The translations under genes were made by a program, and so were the position numbers. Shown here piece by piece: positions 52,322 to 61,967 of a DNA stretch of 64,000 bases. Position 1 is the stretch's first letter; every line of letters begins with the position of its first letter. Origin of the DNA: Promethearchaeota archaeon (GTDB lineage: Archaea > Asgardarchaeota > Lokiarchaeia > Sigyniarchaeales > SOKP01); assembly GCA_048940445.1 (NCBI GenBank), contig JBHLON010000010.1:22102-86101 (forward strand). Direction: 5' to 3'. The notes below the pieces were generated by a model. The model was not told the DNA's origin and ran no database searches. It was given only the letters and a program-made list of their open reading frames with translations.

Positions 52322-52561
52322 TTATTTAACGGCTTCGAAATAAATCCACCATTGTTCTTCATCTTCGATGAATTCGGTCCCAAGATGTTTATGTTTGGTT
52401 TGCTTAGCCAAATCTCTAGGAACACTCTCAGATGCAGGTTTGTAGTCTGTAATAACTTTTAGTACAGTTCCAGGTCGCATTTTCATTAACTCTTTTTTTG
52501 TCTTTAGCGCTGGAACAGGACAAACTAAACCGCATACATTTAATTCTTGATCAAATTTCAT
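52322..52561 (-). CDS. tusA: TusA-family sulfur carrier (last gene of the hdr operon)
   Basis: GLVCPVP and LKVITD. Confidence 0.9.
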   Translation of the reverse strand: MKFDQELNVCGLVCPVPALKTKKELMKMRPGTVLKVITDYKPASESVPRDLAKQTKHKHLGTEFIEDEEQWWIYFEAVK

Positions 52562-52604: not shown

Positions 52605-55076
52605 TTAATCACAAATAATTGAAAATAATGGATCTATCATATCGGTCTCTGCTTTCATTTCTAATTCCATTAACTGAACTAACCGAAGTGCTTCATATCT
52701 AACTTTTCTTGCTTCCATTCCAGTATTTTTTGCTATATCATTTATTGTACTAGGTCCTTGAAGGGTAATATAATCTAACACTAGTTGTCTCGGAGTTTTT
52801 TCAAAAGTCATAAGTTCTCTCTTTGATTTCAAATTGATGGCAGTTTTCAGTTCCTTCTCATTCACTTTAGCTTGTTCATATAAACCTTTTTCAATAGCCT
52901 TTTCAACAAGTGTTTTTCCTCGTTCAGTCCATGCTACAACAGTAGTATATCCTTTTTGTGATCCAACTTCCCCCGCAGTTATATCGGAATAAATTGCTGG
53001 AAAATCTTGACAATGAGAACAGAAATGATTACAACTTAAACATCTACGTGCTTCTTGTAAAGCCAAATCTTCATTAAACACCCTTTCAATCTCTTCAAAA
53101 GACCAATTTATATCTTCTGTTGCTACTTCTAATGATTCTGGCTTTATTGAGTAATCTTTTGGAGGTTTTTTCGGACCAGTAAAAAATGAATTCACTCTTT
53201 TATACCTTCCATCTACTAAATCCTCTCCTTTCAAATATCTGTCAATTGAAATTGCTGCTTCTTTTCCGTGCGATATTGCAGCAATAGCTACAGCTTTGGA
53301 ATTATTAATGATATCTCCTCCTGCAAAAATACCAGGGATGTTTGTTTCAAATGTAATTTCATTAACTTTGATTTTATTTCGTTCTTTTTCTAATTTATTT
53401 TTAGTTGCAGCGTCTATTTGGTCAAAATCAACTGCTTGACCAATGGCTATGACTATATTATCAACTGGGATCTCATAATCAGTATTCTCAACTTTATTCA
53501 AAGACTTCCTTCCATTCACATCTGGTTTTCCCCATTTGATTTTATAACAATTCAAAACCAACTTACCCTCGTCATTCTGAGTGATCTTTGAAGTGGAACT
53601 CTCGAAATGATATTGTATATATGACATTTCACTTTCGGGGATTTCCCTTAAAACTAGTTCTAATTCTTTTTCAGACATGATATCTACTAAATGAACTTTT
53701 TCAGCACCTAACCTTAAAGCTGTTTGAGCAACATCTACAGCAACGGGTCCGCCTCCGATGACACCAATAGTTTTTCCTTTAAATTCTTCTTTATTTTCCC
53801 AATATCGGTATTTTCTATCTATAAGGAAATTTATCGCAACAAATACATTTGGAAGATTCTCTCCTTCTAAGTGTAATGTTCGAGGCTTATATTGTCCAGT
53901 GGCAATAAAAATAGCTTCATATCCATTATTTTTTAAATCTTCTATAGTCATGTCAGGCCCTAATGGTTTATTAAGCTCTACCTTTACGCCAGAATCAATG
54001 ATTCTTTGTATATCGTAATCTAACACATAGTTGGGTAATCTAAATTGTGGAACTCCAAATCGTAACATACCACCAGTCTTATCGGTTTTTTCGAATATTG
54101 TTGGAGCATATCCTCTTTTTCTTAAGTAAAATGCAGCAGTTAGTCCTGCGGGACCAGAACCTATAATAGCTACCTTTTTTGCATTCTTTTTTAATTTTGG
54201 ACTACCTTTTGAAATTTTCTTTTCCTGTTCAATTTCCCATTCAGTCACAAACTTCTTTAATTCCCGAATTGCAACTGGATGATCGTCCCCAATTAAAGTA
54301 CATCCAAATTCACATTCATTTGTACAGATTCTACCACAAACTGAAGGGAGTGGATTGTTTTCTATGATTAAGTTTACAGCATCTTGATACTTGCCTTGAC
54401 GTATTAACGAGATATACCCTTGAGCGTTAACACCCGAAGGACAGTTATTACAGCACGGAGAACACACTAAACCTTTATCTGTTTCTTCAGTTCGAATTTG
54501 TGAATTACAAAATAGACCTATCTTTAAAATTTCTCGTTTCATTTCTTCTGCAATTTCAGCAGCTCCGCGCATTTCACATGGAACACCAACAATCCCTATT
54601 TCATCAAAAGTTTCACCTGTAACTTCTACTAGTCGTTCTAAAACACCTGATCTACCATAAACCACGCCTGCTTTCTGAATTACTTCTTCTGGATTTGTTA
54701 CGATCTCTGCGGATGGTTTTTCATCATTATCCTCTTGAACCATAACTGCTTTCTTAATAGTGTTATTTTCTAATAATTCCTTAACGAAAGTTGTCACAAA
54801 TCCTCCACTGGATGCTTTAGCTAACACTTTTGGATTTTTGCTTCTCAATGAATAAATAGCTAAAGGTTGTTTTTCTTCAAACTTTTTTTGAATAACCTGA
54901 GGACAAATTTGATAACATTTTCCACATTCCTGACCATCTCTCTCTAAAACACAATAATCTTTAAGGGATGGTCGCCTTACTTCCATTTCAATATGCTTAC
55001 AAGACCCCGCACATAGGCCACAACCTTGGCAAAGGCCGGCATCTACTACTTCAGCTTTTAATAATTCAAAACTCAT
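52605..55076 (-). CDS. Ferredoxin + FrhB-like scaffold with inserted GltD/NfnB-like NAD(P)H oxidoreductase + C-terminal wHTH
   Basis: CQGCGLC, SSGGFVT, VGVPC and IGLFC (FrhB-N); SPCCNNCP, CGRIC, GSGPAG, GGGPVA, FAGGD and RRCLSC (GltD); CSHCQDF...DITAGEVGS (FrhB-C). Confidence 0.85.
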   Translation of the reverse strand: MSFELLKAEVVDAGLCQGCGLCAGSCKHIEMEVRRPSLKDYCVLERDGQECGKCYQICPQVIQKKFEEKQPLAIYSLRSKNPKVLAKASSGGFVTTFVKELLENNTIKKAVMVQEDNDEKPSAEIVTNPEEVIQKAGVVYGRSGVLERLVEVTGETFDEIGIVGVPCEMRGAAEIAEEMKREILKIGLFCNSQIRTEETDKGLVCSPCCNNCPSGVNAQGYISLIRQGKYQDAVNLIIENNPLPSVCGRICTNECEFGCTLIGDDHPVAIRELKKFVTEWEIEQEKKISKGSPKLKKNAKKVAIIGSGPAGLTAAFYLRKRGYAPTIFEKTDKTGGMLRFGVPQFRLPNYVLDYDIQRIIDSGVKVELNKPLGPDMTIEDLKNNGYEAIFIATGQYKPRTLHLEGENLPNVFVAINFLIDRKYRYWENKEEFKGKTIGVIGGGPVAVDVAQTALRLGAEKVHLVDIMSEKELELVLREIPESEMSYIQYHFESSTSKITQNDEGKLVLNCYKIKWGKPDVNGRKSLNKVENTDYEIPVDNIVIAIGQAVDFDQIDAATKNKLEKERNKIKVNEITFETNIPGIFAGGDIINNSKAVAIAAISHGKEAAISIDRYLKGEDLVDGRYKRVNSFFTGPKKPPKDYSIKPESLEVATEDINWSFEEIERVFNEDLALQEARRCLSCNHFCSHCQDFPAIYSDITAGEVGSQKGYTTVVAWTERGKTLVEKAIEKGLYEQAKVNEKELKTAINLKSKRELMTFEKTPRQLVLDYITLQGPSTINDIAKNTGMEARKVRYEALRLVQLMELEMKAETDMIDPLFSIICD

Positions 55077-55078
55077 GT

Positions 55079-56314
55079 CTATCCCTCTTTAATTTTTATT
55101 TCTTTTACTATACCTATTGAATCAATCGTAAATTCAACCGAACCATTTTTATAGGATCCCTCAACCACGTCAAAAACGTGAGTTTTATAATCGTCAAAAT
55201 TATCATTCTCATTAATCTGCGTTTTAAATCCACCATAATAGAGATTAGATAAATTCATATTCCCTGCTATTTTTCGTATGTTATCAGTTACATCTTTATA
55301 CTTTTTTGGATCTCTAGATTCTATTGCTTCTAATAATTCCTTTTCTAATTCTCTCAATTGATTTCGATATTGTTTTGTGGCCTCACTTACTTCTATATTA
55401 TTGGCTTGCTCATAGGTTTCCAAGATTTTAAGTGTTAAAGAAATTGAGTGATCTCCTCCTAATAAACCAGTGATTAAAGGTAATTCTTCCACTAATCTTC
55501 CTGTAAATACATCTTCTAATAAACTACCAGATGAGGAGATTCTCCCTTTAGGCAATCCAGATGTAGATAATGTAAATCTAAAGAAGTTACCAACTACATC
55601 TGGTAAACTTGCAGTCACATCATCATCATTATCAGCTAATTTATCAGTTGCTCCTTTTTCAGAATGTTCCGTAGCAACCTCAATGTTTCCCATTAATGTT
55701 CCAAACATTCCAAGCATTCTAATTCCCGAACGTTCTACCATTGGTTTACAACCACGACAAGGTGCATTATAATCTATACATCGTTCCTTGCATTCTTTTG
55801 CTATAAAACCGTTACATAAATATCCAAGATCGTTAAAACATTTTTCGCCATCATCTAATTCAATTTGACGTTTTACTTCTTTCAGATAATCGCATGTTTT
55901 CTTTCTTCCACATACTATACATAAATTATTTAACTTTACTAAATCTTCACCATTAATCTGAGATTTAAGTTCTTCTATCTCAGCTAAACACCCATTAACA
56001 TTTATAACTTCTTTGACAAAATTTTTTAAGGGAGTAATTTCATGGCCTCGTTGATTAGCTAAGGCAAAGACCCCTCCAGTAGTAGTACAATCTCCATAAG
56101 CAATAATTTTTTGTGAATTTTTTTTGATTTTATCTAAAGTATCTTTATCCTCTGGTAATAAATAACCAGTAATTACAGAAGCATTTGTTTTTTCCTCTTT
56201 CCAATCTTTAGGATTTGCAATAAATTCTATTTTATAATCTGAATCTGCTTTTAATAAAATTGTTTCATTAAAGCATTTATTGCATCCATTAAACTGAAAT
56301 ACTTTAACATCCAT
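55079..56314 (-). CDS. mvhG: MvhG/FrhG-like hydrogenase small subunit with a C-terminal extension resembling a degenerate large subunit
   Basis: GCNKC, AYGDCTTTGG, NGC, CIVC, CF..LGYLCNG...C...C...PCRGC and NFFRFTL; about 155 aa of extra C-terminus. Confidence 0.8.
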   Translation of the reverse strand: MDVKVFQFNGCNKCFNETILLKADSDYKIEFIANPKDWKEEKTNASVITGYLLPEDKDTLDKIKKNSQKIIAYGDCTTTGGVFALANQRGHEITPLKNFVKEVINVNGCLAEIEELKSQINGEDLVKLNNLCIVCGRKKTCDYLKEVKRQIELDDGEKCFNDLGYLCNGFIAKECKERCIDYNAPCRGCKPMVERSGIRMLGMFGTLMGNIEVATEHSEKGATDKLADNDDDVTASLPDVVGNFFRFTLSTSGLPKGRISSSGSLLEDVFTGRLVEELPLITGLLGGDHSISLTLKILETYEQANNIEVSEATKQYRNQLRELEKELLEAIESRDPKKYKDVTDNIRKIAGNMNLSNLYYGGFKTQINENDNFDDYKTHVFDVVEGSYKNGSVEFTIDSIGIVKEIKIKEG

Positions 56315-56756
56315 CCTTTAAGGTCCCCTCCTCTTTAATTGCAGTTGCTAATCGTTCCACAATATCTTCAAAATCTCCAACTGCCGTTTCTGCTTCCGCA
56401 GCTCGTGAAGTATATTGATTTACAAATTGGTCACTATATCCTAATTCTTTGAATAATTTTTTCACGAGTTTAATCCTATGCATTGAGAGAATATTGCCAT
56501 TGAAGAAATGACAAGCTCCTATACAACACCCTACACATGCAACACTGTCAGCTCCATTATTTAGCGCATCCATTATTTGAATAGGTCCCACTTGACCAGT
56601 ACATTGGACCCGCACTATACGTATTGCAGGATTATATGACATTCGAGCTACACCAGCTGTATTAGCTGAACCCTGACCACATTCATTACACATGAAAATT
56701 ACTATGTTTTCCATTTTCTCGAGCACTTCTGGCTCAACATATTCACATTCACTCAT
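56304..56756 (-). CDS. mvhD: MvhD/FlpD [2Fe-2S] subunit
   Basis: CNEC, RVQCTGQV and GCCIGACHF; ATG 56756 behind GGAGGTG. Confidence 0.9.
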   Translation of the reverse strand: MSECEYVEPEVLEKMENIVIFMCNECGQGSANTAGVARMSYNPAIRIVRVQCTGQVGPIQIMDALNNGADSVACVGCCIGACHFFNGNILSMHRIKLVKKLFKELGYSDQFVNQYTSRAAEAETAVGDFEDIVERLATAIKEEGTLKDGC

Positions 56757-58785
56757 CTTCGCATACAACACCTCCGCCTGATACGGCGATTATTTCATCT
56801 AATAATTGATCATCCCTAAAATTTAACAATTGAATTGCTCCCGTTGGACAAGCAGGCATACACATACCACATGATTTACATGCTACCTCATTAATCATAG
56901 GAATACCATCATCATTAAGTTGAATTGCGGCGGGAGAGCATACTGTTTTACATAATCCACATCTAACACACAGATCTAAGTCTACAGATGGGATTAACAT
57001 TTCTTTTTCAATATATCCCTTTACTAAAGGAGCAGCTGCTATTGCTGCAGCACTACCAGCATGAGCTACTGATTCTGATATATCTTTGGGACCTTGAATT
57101 GCTCCTGCTAAAAATATCCCTCCTTTGCTACTTAACGTAGGGTTCATTTTAATATGAAATTCTTTTAAAAATCCTTCTTTTGATCGTAATACTTGTAATT
57201 TCGAACCCAAAGGACCAATACCTTCTGGTGGAACCATTGCTGCTGAAAGTACTACTAAATCTGCCTTAAGTTTTAATGGTGTTTGACTTAAAGTATCCTC
57301 AACGATTACACGCAACTCTCCAGAAATTGGGTCTCTAAGGATTTCTGAGGGTCTTCCTCTAATAAATCGAACTCCTACTTCTTGAGCTGATTTATATAAT
57401 TCCTCAAAATTTAATCCTGGTGTTCTTACGTCTATATAACAGATAGTTACATTTGCGTTAGGATACATTTCTTTTATAATGCGTGCATTCTTGACCGCAA
57501 ATTTGCAACAAACACCAGTACAGTATTGATTACCAACTTGATCATTTCTACTTCCAACACATTGGATCATCACTACATTCTTTGGAATCATACCATCAGA
57601 TGGTCTTAATACTTGACTATTTGTTAATGAACCTGGGGCCAGCATTCTTTCCATTTGCAGTTGAGTGATGACATTTTCATAACCTTCTTGTTTATAATGA
57701 TACGGTTCTATTTCAGAAGGATCATATTCATCATAGCCTGCAGCTACTACTATAGAACCTACTTTAAATCTTTTAGTTTCTGGTTGCATCGAAAAGTCAA
57801 CAGCCTGAACGGGACAAATATTTATACAAGTGTTGCATTCTATGCAATTTTTCTTATCTCTTACAAATGTAGCTGGAATTGCTTGAGGATACGCCTTGTA
57901 TATAGCTTTCCTCATTGACATTCCTTTATCCCATTCACTAGGAACTTCTACAGGACAATGAGCTGAACAATCTCCACAGGATGTACAATTATCCTTCACA
58001 TATCGAGGTTTAATTTCTATCTCAACTTCAAAATTACCCATTGATCCTTCCACTTCCTTAACCTGTGCATTAGTATAAAGTTCTATCAAAGGGTGATTTG
58101 CAACTCCATTAGTTAATGGAGATATCGAACATTGTGGACATTCTAATGTTGGAAATGTTTTATTTAACTGCGTCATATGTCCTCCTATTGTTGATTCACG
58201 CTCAACTAGATAGACTGGAATCCCTAATTCTGCTAGATCATGAGCAGATCTAAGACCAGCAATGCCACCTCCAATTACTAGCGCAGCCTTAGTAGTAGGT
58301 ATTCTACGAGTTTCAACATCCTCTAACTTTCGTGCTCTATTAACTCCTGCTTCTATTAATTGTTTTGCCTTTTGAGTTGCTTTATCTTTTTCTTTTTGAT
58401 GTACCCAACTATCAAATTCTCTAATATTTACTTGTTGATGACGGTGTTTGTTTAACCCCATTTCCTGAATTGCATTTGCAAATGTTCTTCCGTGCTGATT
58501 TTTGGAACACGATGCCACCACAGTTCTATTCACACCTAATTCTTTAATCGAATCTTTTACCATTTGGACGCCTGGTTTACTACACATAAACATATAGTGC
58601 TCTGCTTTAACAACATTAGGTAAATGCTTAGCATATTCTGCCACTTTAGCAACATCAACAGTACCAGCGATGTTATGACCGCAATGACATACAAACACCC
58701 CTATTCTAGGTTCTCCTTCTTTAGTTTCTTCTACGTCTCCCTGAATCTCGTGTTTTTCCTTAATTTTTTCTTCTTTTACTGTCAT
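56749..58785 (-). CDS. hdrA: Heterodisulfide reductase subunit A (flavin-bifurcating)
   Basis: IGVFVCHCGHNI, VNIRE, GGGIAG, KTFPTLECPQC, QCVGSR, CTGVCC, GPKDI and ferredoxin motifs. Confidence 0.96.
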   Translation of the reverse strand: MTVKEEKIKEKHEIQGDVEETKEGEPRIGVFVCHCGHNIAGTVDVAKVAEYAKHLPNVVKAEHYMFMCSKPGVQMVKDSIKELGVNRTVVASCSKNQHGRTFANAIQEMGLNKHRHQQVNIREFDSWVHQKEKDKATQKAKQLIEAGVNRARKLEDVETRRIPTTKAALVIGGGIAGLRSAHDLAELGIPVYLVERESTIGGHMTQLNKTFPTLECPQCSISPLTNGVANHPLIELYTNAQVKEVEGSMGNFEVEIEIKPRYVKDNCTSCGDCSAHCPVEVPSEWDKGMSMRKAIYKAYPQAIPATFVRDKKNCIECNTCINICPVQAVDFSMQPETKRFKVGSIVVAAGYDEYDPSEIEPYHYKQEGYENVITQLQMERMLAPGSLTNSQVLRPSDGMIPKNVVMIQCVGSRNDQVGNQYCTGVCCKFAVKNARIIKEMYPNANVTICYIDVRTPGLNFEELYKSAQEVGVRFIRGRPSEILRDPISGELRVIVEDTLSQTPLKLKADLVVLSAAMVPPEGIGPLGSKLQVLRSKEGFLKEFHIKMNPTLSSKGGIFLAGAIQGPKDISESVAHAGSAAAIAAAPLVKGYIEKEMLIPSVDLDLCVRCGLCKTVCSPAAIQLNDDGIPMINEVACKSCGMCMPACPTGAIQLLNFRDDQLLDEIIAVSGGGVVCEDE

Positions 58786-59700
58786 TTATGCTACCTCCTC
58801 TTTCTTAGTTTCTGCTTGCCCAAAAATATAATCACGTCCCATTAACTGATATTGTAATCCTACAAAATCTTGATCCATGCCCATACAATAGGCTACAAGC
58901 TGGGATAGATGAATTACTGGATAATCATAATTACATTCTTTATTTTTATTTAAATAGTCTTGTCCCGTTTCGAATTGCAAATGACAAAACGGACAGATAT
59001 CTAAAATAAAGTCAGGCTTTACTTCATCGATATTTTTCATTTTCTCTGCAAAAATCGTCATACTTGCATCTCCGGAGTATGCTTTAACACCTCCTCCTGC
59101 GCCACAGCAAGTTAATTGTTCTTTAAACCTTACTGATTGTATTCCTAAGACTTCAATAAATTCTTCGATAATTGTTGGCCCTTCAGAACTTTCAATTTCT
59201 CGTATTCTTGTTGGCTTTAAGAAATGACACCCATAATGAACAGCAGCTTTAGCGTTTAACTTCCTTACAATATAATCTTCAACACCCCAAGGTCCAACTT
59301 CATATCCTAATACTTCTGCAACATGTCGAACGTTAATCGTCCCTTTAAATTCATAATCTCCGAGAAGTTTCAGCTTTTCATTTACTTTTTCTCGATGTTC
59401 TTCATTTTCTTTGAGATGCTTATTTACTTCTTGAAGTGTGCCAAAACATCCATTACACACAGTTAAAATATCCGCATCCATTTTTTCAGCAATACTAATA
59501 TTTCTGGCTGCTGCAACCATCCAATCAAATTTATTAAATGAACGAAACACACCGGGTGCAGGACAACAAGTCGCTCTTTCCATGTCTAAAAGTTCATATC
59601 CTAATTTCTCCATAACGAATTTTGTCGATTTTTCGATTGCAGGATATCGATTGGGCATAATACATCCAAGGAAAAATGCAAATGTTTTTTCTTTTGCCAT
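58786..59700 (-). CDS. hdrB: Heterodisulfide reductase subunit B
   Basis: FLGC, TCCPAPG, CNGC, HYGCH, CCGAGGG and CPFCHLQF. Confidence 0.96.
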   Translation of the reverse strand: MAKEKTFAFFLGCIMPNRYPAIEKSTKFVMEKLGYELLDMERATCCPAPGVFRSFNKFDWMVAAARNISIAEKMDADILTVCNGCFGTLQEVNKHLKENEEHREKVNEKLKLLGDYEFKGTINVRHVAEVLGYEVGPWGVEDYIVRKLNAKAAVHYGCHFLKPTRIREIESSEGPTIIEEFIEVLGIQSVRFKEQLTCCGAGGGVKAYSGDASMTIFAEKMKNIDEVKPDFILDICPFCHLQFETGQDYLNKNKECNYDYPVIHLSQLVAYCMGMDQDFVGLQYQLMGRDYIFGQAETKKEEVA

Positions 59701-59703
59701 TTT

Positions 59704-60264
59704 TTAGGCCTCTTCTTTTTTCTTTTTTTCCTCCTTAACTGGAGGTAAATCAAACATGTTTTCTTCAATTTTTTTTAAATCTTTTTCATCCCCTTCCTGC
59801 TTGAACTTGAACGCAGTCGGAGGTAATTCTTCTAACCCTAATTCAACTCTTCTCTTTCTCACTTCATCATTTATCGGAACAGCATGTCCAAAATTTTTCA
59901 AGTACCCAACCACAGCTCTATGATTAGGAGAAATATTTCCTAATTTAGTAGCATAATTTCTTAACTCCATAATTACGTCTGTTGGCCTTACATCTCGTGG
60001 ACATCGTTCATAACACTGATAACAGGTTGTACACAACCAAATATCAGGATCTCTCAATACTGATAAATCTCCCAAAACTACTTTTCTAACAATTAAACGT
60101 GTTTTTAATGCGGTCCATCGTCCGCTTTCACAACTTGCAGTACAAGTACCACATTGGATACATTTTAAAATATTTGATCTACGTTCAATATCGCTAAAAA
60201 ATTCTGGGTTGAAATCCTCATCAACCTTAAATTCCCGATGTTGTTCTTCTTTCACATCAGACAT
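59704..60264 (-). CDS. hdrC: Heterodisulfide reductase subunit C
   Basis: CIQCGTCTASC, IWLCTTCYQCYERCPR and GHAVP. Confidence 0.95.
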   Translation of the reverse strand: MSDVKEEQHREFKVDEDFNPEFFSDIERRSNILKCIQCGTCTASCESGRWTALKTRLIVRKVVLGDLSVLRDPDIWLCTTCYQCYERCPRDVRPTDVIMELRNYATKLGNISPNHRAVVGYLKNFGHAVPINDEVRKRRVELGLEELPPTAFKFKQEGDEKDLKKIEENMFDLPPVKEEKKKKEEA

Positions 60265-60302: not shown

Positions 60303-60719
60303 TTATAATGAGACTACTTGGTTACCATTTGACATTTCTAAAAATCCAGCGGCACCAATAGGATCTTCTACAAAATCCCACATTTCTTCTCTTTTAATTC
60401 CCATTAAATCCATTGTCATTTGACATGGATAAAGTTTCATTCTTCCTTCATCAACTGCTTCTTTGATTAATGCCCATGGATCTTCCATACCGAACTTCTT
60501 TAATCTTTTTCTGAACATTCCGGCTGCCATACCTTTCATAGGTGTTGGCATTCCAGCAACTTTGGGTTTAAATTTTTTCTTTAAAAGCTCTAAACCCCAA
60601 AATGTGAAAAAGAAATTCATTTCCATATCCATTGCACTCCCAGTAGTACCCAAGATTGTCATCATCATAAACTTTTCAAAAGATTTGTCTTTTACAATAA
60701 AATTCATTTTTTCTGCCAA
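60303..60719 (-). CDS. DsrE2/YrkE-like sulfur carrier
   Basis: FFFTFWGL, YPCQMTMDLMG and GAAGFL. Confidence 0.88.
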   Translation of the reverse strand: MAEKMNFIVKDKSFEKFMMMTILGTTGSAMDMEMNFFFTFWGLELLKKKFKPKVAGMPTPMKGMAAGMFRKRLKKFGMEDPWALIKEAVDEGRMKLYPCQMTMDLMGIKREEMWDFVEDPIGAAGFLEMSNGNQVVSL

Positions 60720-60845
60720 TTTTTACACCTTTTTTTTTAAATTTGTTTGTTTTGATTCTATGATTTGAGTTAACTATTTGTTAACCATGATTTACTTTCT
60801 CTAAAAAACTTTTAATTTAATTTTTTAATTTTTATTTTGTTAAAA

Positions 60846-61187
60846 TTACATCCATGAAATAACCTTATTACTATTTTCCATTATGTCAACAAGCTCCATA
60901 TAACCTATGGGCTTTGTATTTTCTTGAATATACTCTAATGGAATTCCTCTTGCTGATAAATCAGGACCCATTACAAATTTCTTTAGGCTCAAACTTCTCA
61001 GTTCAATCATTGACTCTATCATTTTTCCTTTTGCACTAACACCAATCACACCATCATGAATGAACACTATACCCATTTTCTTTCCATTGTTCACATGGTT
61101 TTTAAGAATTGGTACTAGACGGTTTAGTTCATCCCCATATCTAGGGCTAAATCCGAAAAGATATATCATATCAAAGACTTTTTCCAC
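60846..61187 (-). CDS. dsrH: DsrH/TusB-like protein
   Basis: HDGVIG, PDLSARGI and ISW terminus. Confidence 0.87.
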   Translation of the reverse strand: MEKVFDMIYLFGFSPRYGDELNRLVPILKNHVNNGKKMGIVFIHDGVIGVSAKGKMIESMIELRSLSLKKFVMGPDLSARGIPLEYIQENTKPIGYMELVDIMENSNKVISWM

Positions 61188-61201
61188 GTCTTCCCACCAC
61201 C

Positions 61202-61570
61202 TTAAAATCTAAAAATTGTATCGGCATTTTCAATTCTCTCTGTGAGATTTTCTAAATCTATTATCTTTAAACCTTCATATTCTATGAGATCTTCTTTTTC
61301 TAATCCAGCATCAGTTAACGCATTATCAAGTACTAATATCTCTAAATCCGATAATTCTGCCATTTCCATTGGTTCATCAAAAGGATCAACTCCAAGTAAT
61401 GAGGGGTCTGCGTGTTTACTTAATAAGTAAACCGCATCGCCCATAAGTACCACCTGGCAGTCAATTTCTTCTCCTAATCCCCTAAATCCTGACCCTAGCC
61501 TTAATGCTTCAATGGCAGAGTTCTTTCCAATTGGAGATTGGTCACTTATGATTACAACTGATTTGATCAT
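61202..61570 (-). CDS. dsrF: DsrF/TusC-like protein
   Basis: SPIG...EALR and LMGDAVY. Confidence 0.85.
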   Translation of the reverse strand: MIKSVVIISDQSPIGKNSAIEALRLGSGFRGLGEEIDCQVVLMGDAVYLLSKHADPSLLGVDPFDEPMEMAELSDLEILVLDNALTDAGLEKEDLIEYEGLKIIDLENLTERIENADTIFRF

Positions 61571-61575
61571 GTTTC

Positions 61576-61944
61576 CTAGCCCCCTGTTCCAAACATTATT
61601 AATTTATCTGATTCTGCAGTCCAATTAGATAATTCACCCAACCCTTCTTCTTTTGCCCCATCAATAAAACACTGTTCTTTTAATCCACATAGTCCTATCC
61701 ATGTTGTACATCCTGCTAATGGAATTTGATTTTTTTTAATAAATTCTTCCAAAACCCCAGGTAAATTGCGAACAGTAATACCGGTTTCAATATCTTTCTT
61801 GATATTATAGACTCCACTACCATAAAAAAATATTCCCCTAATATGATGGCCCTTTTGTAACACTGCTTTACATAAGTTAAGCAAACTGTCAACTGCTTCA
61901 AATTTATACGGTTCAGTAGCTATCATGAAAGTATATGTTGACAT
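61576..61944 (-). CDS. dsrE: DsrE/TusD-like sulfurtransferase
   Basis: EPY, IFFYGSGVYN, AGCTTW and GLGELS; ATG 61944 behind AAGGAG. Confidence 0.87.
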   Translation of the reverse strand: MSTYTFMIATEPYKFEAVDSLLNLCKAVLQKGHHIRGIFFYGSGVYNIKKDIETGITVRNLPGVLEEFIKKNQIPLAGCTTWIGLCGLKEQCFIDGAKEEGLGELSNWTAESDKLIMFGTGG

Positions 61945-61967
61945 TCTAATTTTCTCCTTCAAAATTT

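Follow-up and report, generated by a model that had tools for sequence, protein, structure and literature searches.

In the Elp-Hdr system, an FrhB-family subunit, a cofactor-less catalytic relic and an MvhD homolog (ElpC) feed the bifurcating flavin adenine dinucleotide (FAD) of HdrA (PMC12350162). In NfnABC, the NfnB-like domain of NfnA is the input that oxidises NADPH (reduced nicotinamide adenine dinucleotide phosphate) and relays single electrons through two [4Fe-4S] clusters (PMC11829005). HdrA proteins with a nested GltD cassette have been published as HdrL, 'type III HdrA' and HdrA9-11 of ANME-1 (PMC9012536, PMC12054007), and Imachi et al. 2020 (PMC7015854) list FlxABCD-HdrABC for the Asgard archaea as a whole. 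Here we describe a GltD module nested within an FrhB protein. The gene lies in a 64,000-nucleotide stretch from a Promethearchaeota archaeon (GCA_048940445.1, contig JBHLON010000010.1, positions 22,102 to 86,101 of the forward strand); this whole stretch is called the window, and positions are counted from its first letter. At 52605-55076 on the minus strand, the window carries an intact open reading frame (ORF) with a product of 823 amino acids (aa), the nested FrhB::GltD protein. GltD cassettes in HdrA and FrhB-family donors to Hdr complexes are known; the searchable literature yielded no account of an FrhB protein with such a module nested at its F420 site. The protein is likely to be the subunit through which electrons from NAD(P)H, here probably NADH, enter a bifurcating HdrABC-MvhD complex that has no hydrogenase.

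Domain Architecture of the Nested Protein

Domains were assigned with Pfam and NCBIfam profiles against curated cut-offs and with phmmer against the sequences of solved structures, and motifs were verified by translation. From the N-terminus, the protein consists of the following parts (pLDDT, predicted local distance difference test).

54891-55055, minus strand: N-terminal 2x[4Fe-4S] ferredoxin domain, residues 8-62, with Cys 16, 19, 22, 26, 42, 51, 54 and 58
54507-54881, minus strand: FrhB N-part, residues 66-190, with the FAD pyrophosphate helix motif A88-SSGG-FVT95 and the cluster ligands C167 (VGVPC) and C190 (IGLFC)
54468-54506, minus strand: 13-residue linker, residues 191-203, where the FrhB lid would start; pLDDT <50
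53025-54467, minus strand: GltD/NfnB-type insert, residues 204-684 (481 aa), with two [4Fe-4S] sites and the FAD and NAD(P)H Rossmann folds
53676-53696, minus strand: end of strand beta2 in the NAD(P)H Rossmann fold, where V461-H-L-V-D465-I-M467 replaces v-t-i-v-Y-R-R
53025-53117, minus strand: permuted GltD N-terminal segment, residues 654-684, ending C679-LS-C682
52797-53024, minus strand: FrhB C-part, residues 685-760, starting C686-SH-C689-QDF, with ligands C686 and C689 and with E703 at the FrhB S209 position
52608-52796, minus strand: C-terminal winged-helix tail, residues 761-823, helix-helix-helix-strand-strand in the AlphaFold model

The nested architecture is real, as a preliminary description made from the letters of the window had read it. 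FrhB_FdhB_C (PF04432, 68.6 bits vs. a cut-off of 23.3) is split in two pieces around Fer4_20 (residues 195-285, 77.1 bits) and Pyr_redox_2 (residues 300-604, 105.2 bits), and in the profile search of the genome positions 2-49 of the FrhB_C profile fell on residues 158-201 and positions 60-149 on residues 650-740. FrhB_FdhB_N (PF04422) matched residues 75-147 at 58.9 bits (cut-off 22). All four domains of the proposed combination were thus found above their cut-offs, and helix-turn-helix (HTH) matches were sub-threshold only. The two FrhB parts were also recognized by phmmer, the N-part matching Fsr (7NP8, E 9e-21) and the C-part matching 8RJA_E (E 8e-12) and FrhB 3ZFS_C (E 4e-8). Translation confirmed both junctions: the N-junction reads IGLFC-NSQIRTEETDKGLV-CSPCCNNCP, in which NSQIRTEETDKGLV is the 13-aa linker, and the C-junction reads RRCLSCNHF-CSHCQDF...AGEVGS. 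The insertion point is between the second and third Cys ligands of the FrhB [4Fe-4S] cluster. Within the ferredoxin domain at the N-terminus, all eight Cys were invariant among 23 family members.

Loss of the F420 Lid from the FrhB Host

The ligands of the FrhB cluster are Cys104, Cys134, Cys192 and Cys195, and a three-stranded sheet (148-172) between Cys134 and Cys192 lies beside the F420 ring; its only conserved turn, 163-IGKGK, adjoins the ring and is probably phosphate-binding, and S209 and V210 are also placed against F420 (Mills et al., PMC3591093). In pairwise alignments, the four Cys correspond to C167, C190, C686 and C689, which were invariant in the aligned members of the nested family, and S209 corresponds to E703. 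Five canonical FrhB paralogs of the same genome have 57-62 aa between GLFC and CxxC, with a ..KGKF.. turn in three of them. By alignment, this F420 lid with its IGKGK/KGKF turn is absent from the nested protein, where residues 191-685 are occupied by the 13-aa linker and the GltD module; the FrhB stretch that the preliminary description had noted as lacking between IGLFC and CxxC.DF is this lid. Position 703 was Glu or Asp in every family member examined, vs. Gly or Ser in the canonical paralogs. With the F420-binding lid lost from the FrhB scaffold, F420H2 is probably no longer a substrate.

The flavin site of the host contrasts with this. The FAD pyrophosphate motif (A88, G91, G92 and T95; (D/S)GG..T) was invariant in the aligned family members, and the FrhB flavin, for which this SGG..T helix motif is the binding site, is probably retained. 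Mean column identity of the FrhB half was 74-76%, like the rest of the protein; the product of the neighbouring gene gave 72%.

At least seven other FrhB paralogs were detected by profile search in the same genome. One of them, a 313-aa paralog on contig C69 (L008:868-1809, plus strand), has also lost the lid (AMAC-SSGGMTG-CKYCTDF) but, unlike the nested protein, is without the DGG/SGG FAD motif as well, which suggests a cofactor-less, purely Fe-S (iron-sulfur) derivative of FrhB. Among the F420 biosynthesis genes of this genome, cofD scored over its cut-off and cofH is split across two contig ends. The cofH pieces are on contigs C61 (4-708) and C70 (7338-7733), with a cofG-like match just upstream on C70; the pathway looks complete, fragmented by the assembly.

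The Insert Is a Circularly Permuted GltD Module

Residues 204-690 matched NCBIfam PRK12771 (NAD(P)-binding protein, a permuted GltD in ferredoxin) with E 2.6e-119. The score of 399.4 bits is under the cut-off of 516, and only profile positions 46-521 of 566 match: the flanking ferredoxin of the PRK12771 type is replaced by FrhB in the nested protein. The best matches among solved structures (phmmer) were NfnA of the Bfu-type NfnABC (9N5U, E 3.5e-90; 9BOV) and StnC (8OH5), followed by NfnB, GltD and DPD. The nucleotide loops are GSGPAG (residues 306-311, GxGxxG) in the FAD fold and GGGPVA (residues 441-446, GxGxxA) in the NAD(P)H fold.

The match of the insert continues through residues 654-684 (..SFEEIERVFNEDLALQEARRCLSC), which align to residues 568-594 of NfnA, to the N-terminus of E. 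coli PreT and to residues 464-491 of L001. The latter (L001:40-2775, minus strand, contig C84) is a 911-aa tandem paralog composed of an N-terminal extension, a ferredoxin domain, FrhB and a classical, unpermuted GltD. In classical GltD, as in PreT and the GltD part of L001, the equivalent segment precedes PCxxxCP. Since the segment is C-terminal here and N-terminal in classical GltD, the insert is a circularly permuted GltD form, the ends of which are close together in the fold, and such closely spaced ends suit insertion. The earlier estimate of a GltD-like module of about 480 aa stood, with the refinement that its last ~30 residues are the permuted N-terminal segment.

C679 and C682 were present in 30 of 30 aligned family members. 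The first [4Fe-4S] cluster of the insert is predicted to be ligated from both of its ends, by C208/C212 and by C679/C682. Because C682 is only three residues from the FrhB ligand C686, this cluster and the FrhB cluster should sit side by side.

Nicotinamide Motif and Phylogeny of the Module

At the end of beta2, 36 of 43 aligned GltD-type relatives outside the family read v-Y-R-R-s..EMPA, whereas the nested protein reads V-D-I-M-S..ELEL. Translation placed VDIM, which had been noticed in place of YRR in the second Rossmann fold, at residues 464-467: both arginines for the 2'-phosphate are lost and an Asp is gained. Most family members carry VDIM, VDIA or VDVM; VEIR and IDIQ also occur. The NAD-dependent PreT of E. 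coli likewise has no Arg pair and an acidic residue (V-A-R-E-E). On these motifs, a preference of the window protein for NADH is a reasonable expectation.

In a maximum-likelihood tree of the GltD module, rooted with eight outgroups and with L014 on a long branch, the nested family was monophyletic (support 100/99), consistent with a single insertion event. Its sister was P0127, a GltD module inserted in an HdrC/HdrB fusion. An origin of the insert from the tandem paralog L001 was rejected, identity being 43% to P0127 vs. 37% to L001. Two lineages with YRR branched first, and all members bearing D/E formed one clade (100/100). On this tree, the lid was lost and E/D703 arose together with the insertion or shortly afterwards, and the acidic switch at beta2 followed later, since the two basal members keep YRR. 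For the same reason the replacement of F420 by NAD(P)H and that of NADPH by NADH are separate steps. The single F420-to-NADH swap of the preliminary description stood in part: the lid is lost, an acidic residue occupies the F420-facing position and YRR has become VDIM, but the acidic motif is not family-wide.

Predicted Structure and the Winged-Helix Tail

An AlphaFold model was built from an 85-row alignment (mean pLDDT 80.4) and compared with 48,161 representatives of the Protein Data Bank with VIA-align. The insert model (residues 204-685) matched NfnA (9N5V) with Z 40.1, rmsd (root-mean-square deviation) 2.6 Å and 440 aligned residues, and NfnB 4YLF with Z 34.6. The two halves of FrhB, taken jointly, matched FrhB 9R51_B (Z 23.4, rmsd 3.4 Å, 224 of 282 residues, model residues 66-761). 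Split FrhB paralog fragments had been misaligned by MAFFT in the alignment behind the full model, and the modelled FrhB part still reached Z 23 against solved FrhB. Other matches of the halves were ElpB 8RVU_E (Z 22.0), 8RJA/8RIU (Z ~21.5), HCAR 5DQR (Z 18.3) and Fsr (Z 17.9). Since the interrupted halves align together to a solved FrhB, the fold in the model re-forms around the insert, minus a part roughly the size of the lid.

The tail block was modelled with pLDDT 86-95. Foldseek matched it to Zalpha 5J6X (template modelling score 0.81, rmsd 2.4 Å) and to winged HTH (wHTH) domains of MarR/ArsR, with E ~2e-3. In Pfam, the tail alone gave HTH_24, HTH_9, FaeA and HVO_A0114 at E 0.002-0.09, all below the cut-offs. 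All family members share this tail in conserved form, its basic third helix (K..VRYEALRL) included. By its modelled topology and the Foldseek matches the tail is a genuine winged helix, as had been suspected from the letters.

N-terminal extensions of 115-155 aa, HTH-like by reading, were seen in the FrhB paralogs L003:1390-2877 (minus strand) and L004:544-2049 (plus strand) and in L001. The three extensions gave only a sub-threshold Pfam match (HVO_A0114, E 0.045). Winged-helix add-ons may be recurrent in Asgard FrhB proteins.

Operon and Distribution

The nested gene is the penultimate gene of the following arrangement, in which the operon genes overlap or are spaced by 2 nt.

59704-60264, minus strand: hdrC (NCBIfam HdrC, 176 bits, over cut-off)
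58786-59700, minus strand: hdrB (NCBIfam HdrB, 375 bits, over cut-off)
56749-58785, minus strand: hdrA
56304-56771, minus strand: mvhD
55079-56314, minus strand: gene for an MvhG-like Fe-S protein of 411 aa (Pfam Oxidored_q6, NCBIfam VhuG), upstream of the nested gene and 2 bases from it
52322-52561, minus strand: tusA (79 aa, CPVP motif), 43 nt downstream of the nested gene

No [NiFe] large-subunit gene was found in this operon. The order hdrC-hdrB-hdrA-mvhD-(~410-aa MvhG-like)-nested gene-tusA persists at loci with as little as 47% identity, and two closed genomes have it as well. Of the 25 other loci examined, 23 have the MvhG-like gene, whose product is presumed to be the wire to MvhD, next to the nested gene; in the remaining two, L023 (cut at a contig end) and L038, no full-length MvhG-like copy was picked up. 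tusA followed the nested gene in every locus with downstream ORFs listed (L014, L015, L017, L018 and L019). In L014, a separate gene for an Lrp/AsnC-type regulator is beside the operon. Sulfur-relay genes (DsrE/DsrH/TusA) lie in the surroundings, at 60303-61962; a weak, sub-threshold similarity to rhodanese near the N-terminus of HdrA (residues 42-112, E 8.6e-4) may be relevant to them.

The full architecture occurs in >100 clusters at 90% identity, in which all named members are Asgard metagenome-assembled genomes. An assembly chimera was rejected, since full-length homologs (47-88% identity) are present on >100 contigs of independent origin, two of them single-contig genomes. When 1.84 billion protein representatives were searched exhaustively with HMMER, the only further full-length matches were two 50%-identity clusters, P0121 and P0122, and all other strong matches covered residues 205-690 only. 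Of the multi-stretch or length-matched hits of this search outside the family, 18 were checked and none had the nested FrhB::GltD form; the host of the cassette was ferredoxin, HdrA, MvhD or HdrC/B, or the hit was a tandem fusion. The architecture is restricted to a single order of Asgard archaea. Full-length copies were detected in ~75-80 of 400 genomes of the phylum, belonging to the taxonomic family of the window organism, to two sister families of the same order and, in one genome, to another family; the remaining genomes gave canonical FrhB_C matches only. In the Atlas, the cluster to which the nested protein belongs is 100% Archaea; those members that have a record come most often from Promethearchaeota. 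In public annotations, homologs appear only as 'FAD-dependent oxidoreductase', and IMG (JGI) calls some of them 'predicted transcriptional regulator'.

Two side observations were made on related sequences. The nested gene and flanks of L019, from a genome of a different family of the phylum (G073), closely match in type (VDIM) those of the window organism's family, to the point of near-identity, and fall inside the clade of that family on the module tree, which points to a recent transfer or a binning error. In the metagenomic proteins P0127, P0131, P0133 and P0210, the permuted GltD cassette is found inside an HdrC-HdrB fusion, after HdrA-MvhD or fused to MvhD. The cassette acts like an NAD(P)H port that can move among Hdr-type systems.

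Proposed Function and Alternatives

Since the nested protein is encoded in an Hdr operon without a hydrogenase, the Hdr complex is probably fed by NADH rather than by H2 or F420H2. Beyond the observed anatomy, conservation, fold, synteny and order of evolutionary events, we infer which cofactors are used, which way the electrons flow and that a physical complex forms, as follows. Hydride from NAD(P)H, with NADH as the most likely donor in this lineage, would be transferred to the FAD of the GltD-type insert, from which electrons would pass singly through its two [4Fe-4S] clusters. The first cluster of the insert would hand them to the adjoining FrhB [4Fe-4S] (C167, C190, C686 and C689), and they would continue through the ferredoxin-domain clusters, the MvhG-like protein and MvhD to HdrA. 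The FrhB scaffold would keep its wiring and docking role. This path combines the input role of NfnA, the precedent of Elp-Hdr and the docking of FrhB-type modules onto partner Fe-S chains via their N-terminal ferredoxin domain (PMC11493965).

Several observations weigh against an NADH-specific, pure input subunit. YRR is kept in two basal lineages of the family, L014 (= P0122) and L038. Asp465 takes the place of the Tyr, whereas the acidic residue of PreT comes two residues later, and the structural equivalence is inexact. The glycine loop has kept the GxGxxA form of NADPH-type relatives; as the NAD-dependent PreT keeps GxGxxA too, this loop is not diagnostic in the GltD family. Finally, SGG..T and the pocket-motif residues R142, H688, Q690 and W716 were invariant in the aligned family members. 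This invariance suggests that the FrhB flavin site is still functional, for which a pure input module offers no explanation.

The last point leads to the reading that selection maintains the lid-less FrhB flavin as a new active site, in a subunit with two working flavins. We regard this as unlikely. Such a site could be a second bifurcation or confurcation point, or could act on sulfane sulfur from the TusA/DsrE relay, with the winged helix docking the carrier. If the latter were true, the FrhB fold would have acquired a new class of reaction, and NADH would be coupled in a new way to the reduction of sulfur in the archaea most closely related to eukaryotes.

It is quite unlikely that the protein is a two-donor or transhydrogenase subunit, in which F420 would still bind at the FrhB flavin and F420H2 and NAD(P)H would be exchanged or both directed into Hdr. 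The organism makes F420, the FAD-binding motif of FrhB is invariant, and tandem FrhB+GltD fusions in both orders (L001 and P0160) make F420-NAD(P) coupling a recurrent theme. However, those tandem fusions, which plausibly do this job, keep the lid and the small residue, whereas in the nested protein the lid with its F420-phosphate loop is wholly gone and an acidic side chain, unfavourable to an anionic cofactor, has replaced the small F420-facing residue in every member examined.

FrhB-family proteins such as HCAR and BciB reduce substrates other than F420. A self-contained NAD(P)H-dependent reductase, whose lid-less FrhB flavin reduces a new substrate (the candidate being sulfane sulfur on TusA), would follow this pattern; the match to HCAR 5DQR (Z 18.3), the family-specific invariant pocket-motif residues (R142, H688, Q690, E/D703 and W716) and the constant downstream tusA would fit it. 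We consider it very unlikely, as an intact ferredoxin domain and a gene strictly linked to mvhG-like, mvhD and hdrABC point to onward electron transfer, and no substrate-binding feature was identified.

A PutA-like redox-sensing regulator, whose flavoenzyme body would sense NAD(P)H or redox state while the tail binds DNA, could draw on the genuine wHTH fold with its conserved basic third-helix residues (K..VRYEALRL) and on the IMG (JGI) naming, but is most improbable for an 823-aa five-cluster flavoprotein inside a tightly packed enzyme operon, which in L014 adjoins a separate Lrp/AsnC-type regulator gene, and with a tail whose Pfam HTH matches are all sub-threshold and whose fold often serves as a protein-docking module.

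An NAD(P)H-fed Hdr complex would bear on models of eukaryote origin. Archaea of the Asgard order concerned, among which two genomes are closed in a single contig, serve as the reference organisms for syntrophy models, and the balance of NADH, ferredoxin and H2 in these archaea is central to such models; the nested protein implies that NAD(P)H feeds one Hdr complex of the order, by way of a domain arrangement for which the searchable literature gave no description. The protein is also a natural cofactor-port swap, with a permuted flavoenzyme cassette placed between two ligands of a single Fe-S cluster. Controls are at hand in the same genome, namely the canonical FrhB set, the tandem FrhB-GltD fusion and the nested form, and within the nested family the insert survives at two stages, NADPH-type and acidic (NADH-type).

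Comparison with Known Systems

The role proposed for the host is closest to that of ElpB/FdhB in the Elp-Hdr and Fdh-Hdr systems (M. marburgensis 8RVU and M. hungatei 7BKC; PMC12350162), which likewise use an FrhB-family donor in place of a hydrogenase for HdrABC. The synteny is that of an Elp/Fdh-type arm: an FrhB-family subunit is encoded together with MvhD, HdrABC and a presumed relic of a catalytic subunit. The F420 site is retained in ElpB and FdhB, which oxidise F420H2, whereas in the nested protein the lid is replaced by an NAD(P)H flavoenzyme, and the relic partner is FdhA-like in the Elp/Fdh systems and MvhG-like here. The fold is shared with ElpB (8RVU_E, Z 22.0), but the sequence match is weak (E 0.006), so the recruitment looks like a parallel event.

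The closest relative of the insert is the NfnB-like domain of NfnA/StnC in NfnABC/StnABC (9BOV, 9N5U and 8OH5). It has the same permutation, with EAxRCLxC at its C-end, and is likewise embedded in a larger Fe-S protein. NfnA and StnC keep YRR and use NADPH, and their host is a formate-dehydrogenase or hydrogenase-like polyferredoxin, not FrhB. HdrL-type HdrA proteins carry a cassette of the same kind, of ~480-500 aa, inside an Fe-S domain of an Hdr-system protein, where it is a proposed NAD(P)H entry; the insertion into HdrA that the preliminary description had named as an analogous event is a published parallel (PMC9012536, PMC12054007), and further examples seen here are P0131 and, in an HdrC/HdrB fusion, P0127. 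The host in the HdrL type is the ferredoxin domain of HdrA and no F420 site is destroyed, whereas the host of the nested protein is FrhB.

The same two families are joined end to end in the tandem paralog L001 and, in the reverse order, in the GltD-FrhB fusion P0160. L001 has an intact lid, a small residue at the S209 position (GSIGS) and YRR, and the nested form differs in all three; L001 is likely an F420:NADP-type oxidoreductase or an FGltS-like protein. In the Atlas, the nearest-neighbour cluster of the nested protein is of this tandem type, and an Asgard cluster of the type has 67 members.

FlxABCD-HdrABC of sulfate reducers is a proposed NADH-dependent bifurcating Hdr system with an MvhD-like connector, as is proposed for the complex described here. 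FlxA belongs to an unrelated flavoprotein family, and the resemblance is functional only. The comparison with FlxA that had been drawn from the letters of the window thus holds for a functional analogue, but the closest relatives are the NfnB-like domain of NfnA for the insert and ElpB/FdhB for the role of the host.

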